Assembly (NCBI GenBank): GCA_034926605.1
Contig: JAYFQV010000010.1
Coordinates: forward strand, 1-32,000
From: Victivallaceae bacterium
GTDB lineage: Bacteria > Verrucomicrobiota > Lentisphaeria > Victivallales > Victivallaceae
Direction of reading: 5' to 3'
Length of the DNA stretch: 32,000 nt
Shown: positions 9,001-15,000 of the stretch, piece by piece
How the letters are laid out: each line of letters starts with the position of its first letter
Numbering within the stretch: the stretch's first letter is position 1
Position numbers: made by a program

Positions 9001-12000
9001 TGTGGGCATATGTTGTGACAAAGGATATGCCGACGCAGAAGTTTGTAGTTACCGGAAAAATTTCATTTCCGGACAGGACTTTTGCCATTGAATCCGTTAA
9101 ATGCTATGGCTCCATGACCGTGGAACTGGGTTATGCCGAAGTCGGCGACGGGTGGCTGGTGGCCTATTTTACCATTCCGCAGCGCGAAGCTCCGCGCGAT
9201 TATTTCAGCGTTACGCTGGACTGGAAATTGTTCAACGGAACCCATGATGGTTACCAGTTGCCGCGACCGGCCAAAGACTGGCCGGCGAGTCGGCGGTCCG
9301 CCGACTCTGGCGGAAAATAGAGACGTCCGGCTTGCAAATCCGGCGCGGGACGGCGCGCCGCCGATGCGGGAACAGCTCCGGAAAAATCCGGAAATTATCG
9401 ACGTATCGGCGGCCGTCCGGCTTGACAAATCCGGAATTCCCATATATAGTTTGGCGGAAATGGTGGAGGCGGATACTCATTTGCCTTGCGGTTACAACGT
9501 GTTGCAACGGAAAGGGGGATAGTGATGATCAAGCTTGTCGAAAACCTGCCTGACCATGTGGTCGGGATTGTCGGAAGTGGGAAGATCACCGGACAGGATT
9601 ACAAGACGGTGTTCATTCCGGCGCTCGAGGCGGCCATGAAAAAGTACCCTAAGGTTAACGTACTTTATGTACTGGCCGACGATTATGCCGGGTTTACTCC
9701 GGGTGCAATGTGGGACGATACCAGAGAGGGGATGCTTCACATTCACGCGTGGGGCCGGGTGGCTATGGTGTGCGAAGGCACGCTGCTTAAGAACCTGGTC
9801 AAGGCGCTGGGGTTCGTCATGCCGCTTTCGGTGCGGACCTATGCGCCGTCGGATATTGAAGCCGCCCGGGAGTGGGTTGCCGGGAAAGATGAGGCGTGAC
9901 GGCGCAGGCATAACGCCCGAAAGCCGGAGTAATGAAAAAACCGGCGGGAGCCTTTGCGGCGCCCGCCGGTTTTGCATTATGGAAGTTAAAGTCTAGCCGA
10001 TCAGCGCCAGACAGCCGTCGCGTTCCTCGACGGAGTATTTGCCGAGGCTCTCGCCTATCGCGAAGGTGCCGATCTTGGAATTGTTGTCCCACAGCTCCAC
10101 TTCGATGCCGTCGAACGCGGCGAGGTCGTTGCAGGAGAAGAATTCCATGCTGGAGAAATTGTCGGCGTCGATTACCAGTTTCAGTTTCGCGTCTCCGGCG
10201 AAACTGAAATCGTCGGCGTCGGCAAAGGCCGCTTCACGCAGGTCGAATTCCAGCATGGACGCTTCGAAGTCGCCCATGGTCATGTTGGTGGTGCCGGAAA
10301 ATTTCACAGCGTCGAAGTTGATCGCGCGGCCGGCAAAGCCGCCGGTAAAGTCGGCGAACTGAAGGATGCGGTCACCCAACACCGAACCGGTGACCTTGCC
10401 GTCGCCGTTTACGGTGCCGATGCTCAGCTGGTCGCCGGAACCGGTGAAAGTGATGGAGGCGTTGCCGTTGACCACGGCGCTGCCGCCTTTTGCGGTATGC
10501 GACGGGTTGGCGCCGCCGGCGTAGATGGTGCCGAGAACGGTGGTGTCGCGCCCGCCGGTGGTGTCGATGGTGATGGAGGCGTTGCCGGATACCACGCTGA
10601 GGCCGCCGTCGTAGGCGTAGCCGCCGCCGAACAGGTCGCCGGAAACAAAGGTATCCGCCACGGTGATGGCGGTGGAAAGCACGGTCGCAGTGCTGCCGGT
10701 TCCCTGTGCTTGGGCGCCGCCGACCACTCTGCCGACCAGGCTGCCGGTCACGGAGATGCTTACGTTGCCGGCGGTCACGCTGCCGCCGCCGTCCGCCGCG
10801 CCGCCGCCGACTATCCAGGCGGAGTTGCCCTGCGACAATATCTTGACGTTGTCGTCGTGGAATATACCGGCAACCGAGATGGTGACGTCGCCGTTGACTC
10901 TGGCCGCGCTGCCGCCGGAGCGGCTGCCGCCGAAGATGGAGCCCATATAGTCGCCGCCGGTGAACGTCATTCGAATGTTGCCGTCGATGGTGTTGTCCCG
11001 CGTTTCCGCGGTGCTGTCCAGCAGGTCGATGCTGCCGCCGTAGAAGTTGCCGCTCATCCGGATGCCCTGATATTCCGGCAGATTGAGGGTGATATTGATG
11101 TCTCCCTTGACGTCGCCCATTCCGGCGCCGGACAGCATCCCGGCGACGAAGCACTGCTTCATCGTCAGATTGATGTCGCCCTCGATCACGCTGTCGTTGC
11201 CGCCGCCGCAGACGATCCGGTGCTTGCCGCCGGTGACCGCCATGTTCACCGCGTAGATGTTGTGCGCGCCGACGTGGACGAAATCATGACTGCCCGCCCC
11301 GAAGGCGAATTGGGTGGTGCCGGCCGAGATCGCCACATTGGTGCCGTCGGTGACGTGGCAGCCGTCGGAGCCGCCGTAAATGATGTTTTTGGAGCCGCCT
11401 GTGACCTTTATCCAAGTGGCGGCAATGTTGTCGTTGGACGCGCCGCCGTAGATGGTGGTTCCGGTCTGTCCGTCGGTCACGACTCCACCGGTGGAGATGG
11501 TGCCGTCGGCATTCAGCACGCCGTTGCCGCCGGAGCTTTCCATCGCGTCGCCCAGGTGCATGGTGCCGGAGGCGGACGCGGCGAGATCGTTCACATATCG
11601 AACCGCGTAGGCCGACGAGTCGGCCCATTCGCTCGACCAGTTGAGCGCGGTGTTGGTGGAAGCGATTGAACGGACGCTGAGTTTTGCAACGTTGGCGCCC
11701 GCGGCCGAGTCGTACTGTTGCACCAGCGTGACCGTGTAGCCGTTTACTTCCACCACTTCGCCGAAGGTGATGTCGAAAGTCTGGCCGCCGAAGGTGGCCT
11801 TGAACACCGGCATCGCCACGCGCACTGCCGCCACCCGTTGCTTGAAGCTTTCCCAACTCTTGTCCTCGATGATCCGGTGCGGGCAGATTTTGCCGCTCCA
11901 GTCATAGTGCATGCGCAGATCGTCGACGGTGAGTCCGGTCACATAAAGCAGGTAGGCGGCAAGTTTTACCGCATTCGCCTCCGCCCGGTAGTAGATGTCG

Positions 12001-15000
12001 GAACTGTAGATGGTGCTGCGGCATATCTCGATGCCGATACTTTTCATGTTGCCGTCGCCGTGGCCGTCGCCAGCGTGCCAGCCGTGGATGTCCAGCGGCA
12101 TGATCTGCACCGCTTCGGTTTCGTCCACCGCGAAATGGAATGATATATATTGGTTGTCCTGCCGGCTGTTAAGATAGTTGCGTTCGGCCGCCGCGCTGGC
12201 GCTGTTGGCGGTGTTGTGGATGGTGATGTACTCGGCGGTCATCGGACCGGGCAGTTTGTATTTCAGGTTGTACGGGGTTTCGTCGAGCAGATCCTGGCGG
12301 ATGGTCAGATCGTCGACACTGCCGCTTATGGTGCCGAGGATGTAATCGCCCTGGGCAAGGCGGCCGTTGATCCGCATTTCATCGGCTTCGATCGAATCGA
12401 GCGAGTTTATGGAACTGCCGGAGGAAAACCATGTGTCGGTAAGGTCGAAGACCACCTTGGACGCCTGAAGCTTGTAGCCGCTGGAGAAGGCGGTTCCTGT
12501 ACCGCGGATGGTCACGGTGGCGCTGACTCCGGATGCCTGAAGCAGATTGGTGTTGAACGTGGTATTTTTCAGCACCATCGATTTGTTGGCCGAGGTCAGC
12601 ACCACGTTGACATTGGCGGGCTGGGTCTGGGTGCCGTCCTTTTTGGTGGTGGTGCCGCCGCGGTTCACGGTGGCGTTTTCCATGTAGACGTCGCCGTTGA
12701 ATTCGTATTTCGGGGCGGTGCCCTTGATGTTCAGGCCGCGGTCGGCCAGCACGATGGAGCCGCCGGTCATATGCAGGTTGTTGACCACGCCGCTGCGGAA
12801 GAACAGCGTGCCGCCGGACATCTCGACGTTGTTGGCTACGGCGGTGTTGGTGGATATTTCTCCGTCCCAGCTGCCGCCTACGTTAACTTCGCCAAGATAG
12901 AGCGCCCCGGCGGTGATGTTCACGTTGGTTATAGTGATGGTGCGGCCGGGGTTGGTGACGGTGCCGCCGGCGGAGGTGGCTAAATAGGCATAGCCGCCGG
13001 TCTTCTGGCTGATGGTGAGGTTTTCGATGTCGCTGCGCCAGGAGGTCCAGCCGTTGACTATGGTTATGTTCCTGGCGGAAACGGGATTGACGGAGTTGTT
13101 GCCGAATCCGGCGCAGTCGAGGGTCAATCCGTCGATCGTCACGTTTGAGCCGCAGGTGAAGGTGTTGTAATCAAGATTGATCAGCGTCAGGTTCTTTACG
13201 GTCACACCGTCGCCGATGCGGAAGGAACCGCCGTTTCTGGTGTAATCGGTGACCACGTCGCCAACGGCGCTGAAAGTGGATTTCTGCCCGGCTATCACGC
13301 AGTCGACAAACTCGGTGCCCGCCAGCAGAATGCCCCAGTCGAATACCGAGCCGTCTTCCATTGTGAGGTTGCGCACCTTGGCCGCGCCGTCAACCGTGAA
13401 AATGCCGCCCGACTCTATCGCAGTGTCCACCAGCGTTCCGGCGCCGGTGCGGATCATGCCGCCGGAACCGACCTGCGTGCTGGATGCCACGGTGCCGTCG
13501 AGCAGGCTGAGCAGGGAGTTAACTCCGCCGGAGCCGATGCCGCGGATCAGGGCGTTGAACACCGTCGTGCTTCCGGCCTCGGCGTTGATATAGCCGCCGT
13601 TTTCGATCACCACGTTGCGCAGTTCGCTGTTGCCGATGGAAAAGGTATGGTGGATATTGTCTTCGTCAAAATCCTCGTTGACGCCTTCGACCGCTATGGT
13701 TGAAGCGCAGTCGATCTGCAATGCGGTATGGCCGCTGGTGGCAAGGCCGACATTTACGGAATTGCGGTCTATGGCGTATTTTCCCCCGTGGACTACGGTG
13801 GTGCCCGGAGCGGCGGCATATAATTCCGTTCCTGCGATCTCTATGGCCGCGATAAGGCCTGGGTCGACATTGGCGAGCATCTCCTCCATGAACGATACCT
13901 CCTCGTGAATAGGTTGTTTCAAATTATATTATACCACATTTTCAACCATTAATCAATAGCCCGATCTGTTATAAGTTTGACATGACCAGCATTTTTGTGC
14001 GGTTTTTCGATTTGCCGGGAGCCGCAGGCGCAGGCTGCCGGCCGGGGCCGACCCCAACGCGCAGGATAAGGACGGCGACACCGTTCTGATGTTCGCGCCG
14101 CAGGTCAAAGCGAACCGCAAGCTGTATATGTTGCTCTTCTGCGCGCCGGGAATCGATCTGAACAAGGTCAATAAATCCGGCAAGACGGCGCTCCATTTCA
14201 TGATCGAGTTCAACGCGCCGGACTATGTGATCCGGGAGATGATAAAGCGCGGCGTCGACGTGAACATGTACGCGCCGCCCGCTTCCGCGCCGTTGGACTC
14301 CGCCATTCGGATGAAGCGTGAACCGGTGGTCAGAATGTTGCGTGCCGCCGGAGCCGAGACCGCCTCGCAGTTGCGTGCGAAGTAGTCGCCACCGGCGGTA
14401 GCGGTCAATCCCACTTGGTTTTGTTGGCGATCTTCACCAGTATGAGCATGACCGGCACTTCCACCAGCACGCCGACGATGGTCGCCAGCGCCACCGGCGA
14501 CGCGGCGCCGAACACCGCTATCGCCACCGCCACCGCCAGTTCGAAAAAGTTGGACGCTCCGATCATGCCGGCCGGCGCCGCCACGTTGTGCGGCAGCTTC
14601 AGCCATTTGCAGGGCAGATAGGATATGAAGAAGATCAGAAACGTGTTGATGACCAGCGGAACCGCGATCAGCGCTATGTGCAGCGGATTGGCGATTATCA
14701 CATACCCCTGAAACGAGAAGATTATGACCAGCGTCAGCAGCAGCCCGGCAATGGTGACATGGCTGAATTTTCCGATGAATTTCGATTCGAAATACTCGAG
14801 CCCCCGGCGTTTTATCACCGTATGACGCGTGATGACGCCGCCAGCCAGCGGTATGACCACAAACAGCACCACGGAAAGCGCAAGCGTGCCCCACGGTACC
14901 GAAACGTCGCTCAACCCCAGCAGGAATTTGACGATCGGAATGAATGCCACGAGGATGATCAGGTCGTTGGTCGCCACCTGAACCACGGTATAGGCCGGAT

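Follow-up and report, generated by a model that had tools for sequence, protein, structure and literature searches.

An endolysin-type amidase cassette in a signal-less beta-helix protein of Victivallaceae

The first 32,000 nucleotides of contig JAYFQV010000010.1 from a gut-type Victivallaceae bacterium (phylum Lentisphaerota; GCA_034926605.1), hereafter called the window, carry on their reverse strand a gene for a 1298-residue protein in which a predicted peptidoglycan-cleaving domain lies between two regions of beta-helical structure. Our analyses firmly support the interpretation that residues 522-696 form a complete and intact N-acetylmuramoyl-L-alanine amidase of the endolysin type, for which cleavage activity is predicted, and that this cassette represents a clean insertion into a beta-helix scaffold. 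Equally firm support was obtained for the assignment of the protein to a large, almost entirely Victivallaceae family, which is defined by a C-terminal module of ~400 residues and by the lack of a Sec signal. Endolysin-type amidases and beta-helix surface proteins are known kinds of protein, whereas the C-terminal module is uncharacterised.

The gene and the parts of its product

All coordinates are positions in the window. The gene, its expression signals and the segments of its product are arranged as follows, with the source of each assignment in brackets.

13928-13956, reverse strand: sigma-70-type promoter, TTGATT, 17-nt spacer and TG-extended TATAAT (consensus scan)
13898-13904, reverse strand: ribosome-binding site GAGGAGG, 8 nt 5' of the ATG (sequence; GAGGAG is kept at orthologous locus L026)
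9993-13889, reverse strand: coding sequence of the 1298-residue protein, ATG at 13889, stop codon TAG at 9993-9995 (open reading frame call and codon check)
13605-13889, reverse strand: N-terminal ~95 residues, lineage-specific, of low confidence and without signal-peptide features (alignment, model confidence, hydropathy and charge)
12327-13604, reverse strand: N-terminal right-handed beta-helix, Ag43/AIDA-like, residues 96-521 (AlphaFold2 and Foldseek)
11802-12326, reverse strand: N-acetylmuramoyl-L-alanine amidase cassette, residues 522-696 (Pfam, PHROG, PDB, Foldseek, phage tblastn and paralogue alignment)
11877-12239, reverse strand: Amidase_2 core, residues 551-671 (Pfam PF01510)
12216-12218, reverse strand: codon of H558 (codon check)
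12027-12029, reverse strand: codon of E621 (codon check)
11907-11909, reverse strand: codon of H661 (codon check)
11889-11891, reverse strand: codon of K667 (key codon in the amidase cassette)
11883-11885, reverse strand: codon of C669 (codon check)
11490-11801, reverse strand: middle beta domain, residues 697-800 (paralogue alignment; AlphaFold2 strands)
10482-11489, reverse strand: C-terminal Gly-rich beta-helix, residues 801-1136, with rungs of ~25-30 residues (AlphaFold2, family alignment A5, HMMER)
9996-10481, reverse strand: C-terminal beta-sandwich-like domain, residues 1137-1298, ending DGCLALIG, the terminal part of the family-defining module (AlphaFold2, HMMER)
9935-9973, reverse strand: intrinsic terminator, bidirectional (A-tract, 12+3-bp GC hairpin, T6), between convergent genes (folding)

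The open reading frame stands as a preliminary description of this DNA had given it, from its extent and length to its ...RDGCLALIG end, and a homologue search of protein clusters returned the identical protein (P0001) and the orthologues P0002-P0005. Its promoter matches the consensus at 10 of 12 positions and has the extended -10 TG; four other promoter-like sites in the window reach 11 of 12, slightly above it, so that the earlier ranking of this promoter among the best in the window is fair. At the locus of the 86%-identical orthologue P0002 (L026), the -35 element, extended -10 element, spacing, ribosome-binding site and ATG are conserved, and the sequence further upstream diverges. We take the ATG at 13889 as the start because the sole in-frame extension, a TTG at 13922, lies only ~6 nt past the -10 hexamer, and because GAGGAGG precedes the ATG. 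The rejected TTG would add 11 residues and no export signal; the absence of such a signal is not an artefact of start-codon choice. The terminator was overlooked by a consensus scan and revealed by folding: the 111-nt region reaches -50.2 kcal/mol (z = -5.66), and the G+C-rich hairpin of 12+3 bp with its T6 tract agrees with the earlier view of this terminator as strong. Because it has its own promoter and terminator, the gene is a self-contained transcription unit, and on sequence grounds its expression signals are shown to be monocistronic. No RNA families were found in the window with Rfam.

The amidase cassette and its insertion site

Amidase_2 (PF01510) is the sole Pfam family found on the 1298-residue protein, matching residues 551-671 with E = 3.4e-18 and 66.7 bits against a cut-off of 26; NCBIfam and PADLOC searches of the full-length protein gave no matches. 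As had been proposed, a complete amidase_2 domain with an intact His...His-x7-Cys triad sits in the middle of the protein, and the span first assigned to it (~11838-12260) is contained in the full domain at 11802-12326. PHROG families of amidases and endolysins match the cassette with E values down to 2.5e-49. A PDB search with a profile of five orthologues recovered the catalytic domains of PlyG, PlyL and XlyA (E from 4.5e-43 for PlyG to 1.9e-29), to which the cassette is ~40-50% identical over ~150 residues. In the profile alignment, H29, E90, H129 and C137 of PlyL correspond to H558, E621, H661 and C669, of which E621 is the catalytic glutamate and the other three are the zinc ligands; all are intact, and all are invariant in five of five orthologues. 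Foldseek comparisons of both AlphaFold2 segment models returned the structures 2l47, 1yb0 and 3rdr with probability 1.00 and target-normalised template modelling (TM) scores of 0.64-0.69.

The cassette thus shares its zinc ligands, its catalytic glutamate and its predicted fold with PlyG, PlyL and XlyA. However, endolysins are phage proteins of ~230-350 residues that carry a C-terminal cell-wall-binding domain and are released by a holin, whereas the domain studied here is an internal part of a 1298-residue beta-helix protein encoded on the chromosome of a diderm bacterium, with neither a cell-wall-binding domain nor a phage context. Among 50,697 phage records searched with tblastn, 355 match the amidase at ~50% identity; these belong to phages of Bacillus (211) and Paenibacillus (110), together 321 of the 355, and the remainder mostly to other Firmicutes phages.

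An enzyme of this type, joined to beta-helices, might suggest a prophage-derived tail fibre or tailspike with a virion-associated lysin, or a lysis protein, particularly as tailspikes are often beta-helical and Foldseek gave weak matches to HK620 and phi29 gp12. However, matches to PHROG and to the viral structure library (BFVD) point to the amidase alone, neither the window nor the orthologue loci contain phage genes, family members occur in multiple copies dispersed among chromosomal genes, and the base composition of the gene is not foreign. A prophage origin of the whole protein is therefore exceedingly unlikely.

AmpD, which also belongs to Amidase_2, matches the amidase only weakly in structure (Foldseek E = 7e-3, target-normalised TM-score 0.45), and the endolysins come far nearer, with E 1e-43 and a target-normalised TM-score of ~0.68. 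This difference bears on whether the protein could be cytoplasmic, for example an AmpD-like muropeptide-recycling amidase mounted on a scaffold and released by lysis or in vesicles. The lack of a recognisable export signal or transmembrane segment and of nearby secretion genes would suit such a protein, as would AmpD's membership of the same Pfam family. However, sister proteins carry AIDA, RHS, Big_5, PPC-like, FN3-like and protease modules that are typically extracellular, and no cytoplasmic role is known for the giant acidic beta-helix proteins of this family, which form more than 200 clusters. Together with the closeness to endolysins, these observations make a cytoplasmic function highly improbable.

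Only five full-length relatives were found among 5.8 billion protein clusters, and the only one of these with a source name comes from a Victivallaceae metagenome-assembled genome (MAG); amidase-less paralogues were found by using the C-terminal 609 residues alone as the query. In the resulting alignment, P0007, P0010, P0014, P0016 and P0017 run contiguously across the insertion site, from GRLxQGxY.LG directly to FGGQxFxxTFGE, whereas the protein and its orthologues have ~175 extra residues (522-696) exactly between these two motifs. Orthologues are 73-85% identical within the insert, compared with 30-59% for every scaffold segment, and, judging from these identities, purifying selection is shown to be much stronger on the enzyme than on the scaffold. 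The G+C content at third codon positions (GC3) is 0.79 for the insert, 0.79 for residues 1-521 and 0.81-0.86 for the other scaffold segments, and the composition of the insert is not foreign because it is so close to that of the scaffold. The high identity and native-like GC3 of the insert therefore point to an old insertion and strong selection for function. That the cassette is old, well ameliorated and of the Bacillales-phage endolysin type (PlyG/PlyL/XlyA) forms one part of an overall explanation that, taken jointly, we would give an even chance of being correct.

A 749-residue version of the protein (P0006; locus L027, 436-2685) starts with MTAEYITIHNT inside the amidase domain, 435 nt from the contig end; most likely the gene call is truncated or frameshifted, and there is no natural isoform of this length.

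A single orthologous group whose enzyme is under strong purifying selection would also be expected of a housekeeping autolysin that reaches the periplasm or cell surface and acts on the producer's own peptidoglycan in cell separation, sacculus remodelling, or slime or surface architecture. We regard this explanation, the main rival to the one favoured here, as unlikely, although it is the alternative with the most in its favour. The catalytic domain is of the phage-endolysin type and not of the AmiA/B/C type (Amidase_3), and more than 1100 residues of adhesin-like beta-helix would be superfluous for a periplasmic amidase. Furthermore, the enzyme has no Sec, Tat or lipoprotein signal that could carry it to the periplasm, and sister members bear proteases or RHS repeats in place of the amidase.

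The scaffold and the C-terminal-module family

AlphaFold2 models residues ~140-500 as a beta-helix with predicted local distance difference test (pLDDT) values above 90, and this N-terminal helix resembles Ag43 (Foldseek E = 6.5e-4 and 8.9e-4, probability 0.99), with weaker matches to Ag43b and TibA. Residues ~765-1298 are modelled, mostly with pLDDT above 90, as a second beta-helix with a beta-sandwich-like end of ~160 residues whose strands have pLDDT values of 73-95; this region resembles pertactin, the Ca-bound helix of MpAFP, and RsaA only weakly. With the exception of Ag43, Foldseek comparisons of the beta-helices with the PDB and BFVD gave generic beta-helix likeness only. The middle beta domain is common to the closer paralogues, which share the motifs FGGQxFxxTFGE...GY..., ...LSVR... 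and YAVRYVNDLAA. Thus the preliminary description was right that the amidase is flanked by beta-helical regions, but its count of 540 residues of repeats on the N-terminal side falls to ~430, because the first ~95 residues are of low confidence (pLDDT 34-52 over residues 1-90) and missing in orthologues P0003-P0005. No Pfam repeat family matches the protein at E <= 1. It lacks transmembrane-like segments, is acidic (isoelectric point 4.56) and is rich in Gly (13.7%), Thr, Ser, Asn and Asp.

Comparison with known beta-helix surface proteins reveals both likenesses and differences. The N-terminal region is predicted to form the same right-handed, three-faced beta-helix as Ag43, AIDA-I and TibA, which belong to the type Va secretion systems. 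Unlike these, the protein lacks a Sec signal and a C-terminal 12-stranded autotransporter barrel: no match to PF03797 was found at E <= 1, and the model ends in the beta-sandwich-like domain, with a terminal Gly rather than an aromatic residue. The RTX adhesins MpIBP/MpAFP and the S-layer protein RsaA are displayed on the cell surface without a signal peptide, but the likeness of the C-terminal Gly-rich helix to RsaA and to region IV of MpIBP/MpAFP is below significance (Foldseek E = 0.15-1.2, probability <= 0.28), and its repeat unit measures ~25-30 residues compared with 9 or 19 in those proteins. Chlamydial Pmp proteins, from the same broad lineage of Planctomycetes, Verrucomicrobia and Chlamydiae (PVC), are likewise a multi-copy family of beta-helix surface proteins. 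The protein studied here differs from them in having neither a signal peptide nor a barrel, no GGA[ILVM] motif, FxxN motifs at chance frequency (3 versus 3.1 expected) and no Chlam_PMP (PF02415) match.

The N-terminus carries none of the usual signals for export. The net charge over residues 1-12 is -3, the maximum 12-residue hydropathy of the first 45 residues is 1.53, all 19-residue windows lie at or below 1.47, and neither a twin-arginine motif nor a lipobox was found there. A signal-peptide-like N-terminus, in which a positive n-region is followed by a hydrophobic h-region, occurs in none of ~55 full-length family members. In these proteins the net charge of the first 12 residues is at most +1, except for one with a doubtful N-terminus, and the most hydrophobic 12-residue stretch of the first 45 residues is never above ~2.0. 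In many members the beta-helix rungs instead begin at the N-terminus itself, as in MAFTxPV...GExIDxGxQ and MAEYxDLxISG. As an internal control, a neighbouring lipoprotein gene (8499-9320, forward strand; weak match to a MORN-repeat variant) encodes the signal MRWSYLMSLLLLAAVGC with a textbook lipobox, and ordinary signals therefore exist in this organism. Given both the survey and this control, the absence of a signal is a real trait of the family, which extends the earlier statement that the protein has no Sec, Tat or lipoprotein signal.

The family was delineated by an exhaustive HMMER search of 1.84 billion representatives (clustered at 50% identity) with a profile from which the amidase was omitted. 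This search recovered 234 clusters at E <= 1e-3, of which 63 reach E <= 1e-30. In nearly all listed members, which range from 800 to 3566 residues, the match extends to the extreme C-terminus, and alignment reveals that the universally shared part is the last ~400 residues, from residue ~900 of the protein studied here, and hence includes the C-terminal Gly-rich beta-helix from that point onward. All looked-up members with a source name are from Victivallaceae or Victivallis. A genome scan added six loci in a MAG with the label Verrucomicrobia, as well as two matches, both weak, in Feifaniaceae and Lentisphaeria MAGs, and found at least seven copies in one MAG. We found no literature on this family in searches concerning secretion or autotransporters of Victivallis and Lentisphaerae.

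The variable parts of sister members include AIDA repeats (Pfam E = 4e-35) with a Reprolysin-like metalloprotease, and RHS repeats with Big_5; others, recognised only by reading the sequences, include papain-like cysteine proteases with a PPC-like domain, FN3-like repeats and Pmp-like repeats. The suggestion that the protein is a polymorphic effector is therefore partly upheld, in that a conserved module is combined with different payloads, but classical polymorphic toxins have the opposite polarity, for in this family it is the C-terminus that is conserved and the N-terminal or central part that varies. The polymorphic toxins of the Rhs, contact-dependent inhibition and type VI or type VII secretion systems combine an N-terminal trafficking domain, a variable C-terminal toxin and an adjacent immunity gene; here no trafficking domain was found with Pfam or NCBIfam, the C-terminus is the conserved end, and no partner gene recurs beside family members.

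These differences affect another alternative, namely that the protein is a contact-dependent antibacterial effector injected into the periplasm of Gram-negative cells by a type VI secretion system (T6SS), a type IV secretion system (T4SS) or a similar device. Peptidoglycan hydrolases are common cargo of injection systems, and the lack of a Sec signal and the polymorphism of a family with an RHS-repeat member would fit such a role. However, no PAAR, VgrG, MIX, LXG, TPS or XVIPCD-type trafficking domain was found with Pfam and NCBIfam, an adjacent immunity gene occurs at none of 25 family loci, the conserved 400-residue C-terminal beta-helix resembles no known injection signal, and a rigid beta-helix of 1300-3500 residues would be implausible cargo. 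We consider injection quite improbable.

At the extreme C-terminus, 20 of ~70 family members (P0001-P0072) end in ...LA, and many have G-x-L-A/S within their last 4-10 residues, where the protein studied here has DGCLALIG. Members that bear an additional linker behind the beta-sandwich (P0028, P0067, P0069, P0071 and P0072) keep such an end (GMLA, GILA, GYLA, GFLA and GLLA), and P0044 ends in SLLA. This G-x-L-A-like end may serve as a terminal recognition motif.

Gene neighbourhood, export and biological meaning

The amidase gene is convergent with a gene for a SpoIIAA-like protein and divergent from a 5'-truncated ankyrin gene, beyond which lie ACR3 and arsC-like genes. Locus L026 has the same neighbours, with an intact ankyrin gene of 774 codons. 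In the window, the 98-residue ankyrin open reading frame (14089-14385, forward strand) is 88% identical to residues 677-774 of the L026 protein and looks like a remnant that has lost the first ~650 codons; by eye, the homology seems to extend upstream to ~14000, ~40 nt upstream of the -35 box of the amidase gene. In L026, too, ACR3 adjoins the ankyrin gene, and ACR3 is therefore a conserved neighbour and not an insertion. From sequence reading only, the genes of this arsenic-type cluster (14405-16741, reverse strand) are the following.

14405-15442, reverse strand: ACR3-like permease
15439-15933, reverse strand: low-molecular-weight phosphatase/ArsC-like protein
15866-16741, reverse strand: methyltransferase-like open reading frame

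More distant orthologues lie amid unrelated housekeeping genes, and the neighbours at locus L004 differ. When all open reading frames of the 25 family loci were clustered, no recurrent neighbours emerged except further family members; NTP_transf_5 (effectively two independent loci), GH20 (two loci) and CBM9 (two loci) were the repeats observed. A candidate immunity gene is neither consistently adjacent in these loci nor adjacent in the window. The earlier remark that no immunity-like or secretion gene adjoins the amidase gene thus applies to the window and extends to the 25 loci, and the suggested look at the neighbours of homologues found no T1SS- or T6SS-type component (type I and type VI secretion systems) that recurs beside family members. 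The missing immunity gene would also be expected of the autolysin considered above. However, the cell-wall-gene setting found for one orthologue in MAG STD2_119, which favours an autolysin (mreC, a gene for a PBP2-like transpeptidase, SMC_N and divIC), is not kept: the neighbours are ACR3, ankyrin and SpoIIAA-like genes in the window and at L026, and others at L004.

Several other observations were made in the window and at family loci. A giant repeat open reading frame (1-4026, reverse strand, ATG at 4026) runs off the start of the window, encodes more than 1342 residues without a signal peptide or a Pfam match, and contains 10 GGA[ILVM] motifs (0.6 expected) and 18 FxxN motifs (3.5 expected). 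A search by way of a neighbouring MFS gene for the C-terminal end of this protein gave only a 5.4-kb contig. The protein is weakly similar (25-30% identity) to N-terminal portions of P0022, P0024 and P0037, and the syntenic position in L027 (amidase gene, LeuA, giant gene) holds an apparent, unaligned counterpart of 2493 residues with a faint Chlam_PMP match. The 362-residue product of the open reading frame at 17053-18141 (reverse strand) has a corrinoid domain of the CdhD type (Pfam E = 4e-9), a membrane-like region at its C-terminal end and the motif NVWCAAGK, and looks like an HgcA-type mercury-methylation protein. Two family members are in tandem at L005 (7453-9951 and 10001-12562), and at L007 (3789-8149 and 14214-15740) the member P0009 lies amid mobile-element-like genes (phage integrase, P4 cII-like, RES, PDDEXK and DUF932). 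GH20 hexosaminidase-like genes are directly 3' of members at L010 (11208-14006) and L020 (1526-4282), as are genes for CBM9 proteins at L018 (11078-11806) and L019 (1423-2091). The window itself contains glycan genes of the GH20, GH127 and heparinase II/III types (including 27609-29093). The family may be loosely associated with glycan-foraging loci, or these arrangements may be due to chance.

The explanation we favour, with confidence that is evenly balanced, is that the protein is a surface-displayed or secreted modular protein, exported independently of Sec under the direction of its C-terminus, and that its amidase acts on foreign peptidoglycan. An extracellular destination is suggested by the extracellular modules of sister members, the adhesin-like helices, the secreted-type composition and the position of the only invariant feature at the C-terminus, where T1SS signals lie, and a non-Sec route for export is a reasonable inference. 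The C-terminal module would be the export or surface-anchoring determinant and may represent a new signal for sorting or secretion. Export from the cytoplasm would proceed through a T1SS-like assembly of ABC transporter, membrane fusion protein (MFP) and outer membrane protein (OMP), or through a lineage-specific pathway encoded elsewhere in the genome. A T1SS-like route is the most economical guess. Outside the cell, the N-terminal helix could function as an adhesin-like arm, and the amidase would cut stem peptides off glycan strands wherever peptidoglycan lacks the cover of an outer membrane. Gram-positive neighbours and cell-wall debris are examples of such a substrate, for the purpose of killing or foraging, and the producer would need no dedicated immunity protein because it has an outer membrane of its own. 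Only exposed peptidoglycan could be reached from outside a diderm cell, which fits such a target and would explain the missing immunity gene.

In overall topology there is a parallel with the multifunctional autoprocessing RTX (MARTX) toxins and other large T1SS substrates, which lack an N-terminal signal and arrange Gly-rich repeats around a central enzymatic payload, with a C-terminal export region. The protein studied here resembles them in its missing signal, its order of repeats, enzyme, repeats and conserved C-terminus, its acidity and the swapping of payloads within its family. Unlike MARTX toxins, it has no MARTX A or B repeats and no detected cysteine-protease autoprocessing domain, there are no adjacent rtxBDE-type transporter genes at the 25 loci, and its predicted target is peptidoglycan rather than a eukaryotic cytosolic component.

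Some observations weigh against the favoured explanation. RTX nonapeptides are the usual hallmark of large T1SS substrates, but the protein contains no GGxGxD motif and no HemolysinCabind (PF00353) match; among the repeat profiles for which scans had been suggested, RTX and Chlam_PMP are both absent. Its 11 cysteines are more than is typical of T1SS substrates. No genes for ABC, MFP or TolC-like OMP components, nor for a type II secretion system, T4SS or T6SS, are consistently adjacent at the 25 loci or present in the window. The C-terminal module gave no credible Pfam or NCBIfam match (12 modules searched at E <= 10, with scattered chance matches only), and a sequence-profile search of the PDB was empty; its role is therefore assigned from position and conservation only. 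The local pLDDT of the amidase region is only 40-75, because the alignments are shallow and mixed. Finally, the orthologue in STD2_119 lies within ~8 kb of mreC, the PBP2-like gene and divIC, with an SMC_N gene also present, and this proximity could hint at a housekeeping role in the cell wall.

A bolder version of the favoured explanation, which we offer tentatively and consider rather less probable, would make the ~400-residue module the recognition and translocation domain of an undescribed Sec-independent pathway for export or surface display, specific to Victivallaceae and with dozens of substrates per genome, namely adhesin-like beta-helices with swapped enzymatic cassettes that include the amidase, proteases and an RHS toxin. 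The amidase member would then be bacteriolytic, or would forage for peptidoglycan, against other gut bacteria.

Lentisphaerota are a poorly studied gut and environmental phylum of the PVC group. Should the C-terminal module prove to be a signal for export or sorting, the phylum would possess many secreted or surface proteins that lack annotation, and the module would provide a handle on machinery that moves giant signal-less proteins across two membranes. The protein would also represent a phage-endolysin catalytic domain domesticated as an internal cassette in the surface protein of a diderm, which suggests how a glycan-foraging Gram-negative bacterium could lyse Gram-positive walls, or strip them, and need no immunity protein. 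More generally, the family is a natural example of how enzyme cassettes can be carried on beta-helix scaffolds.

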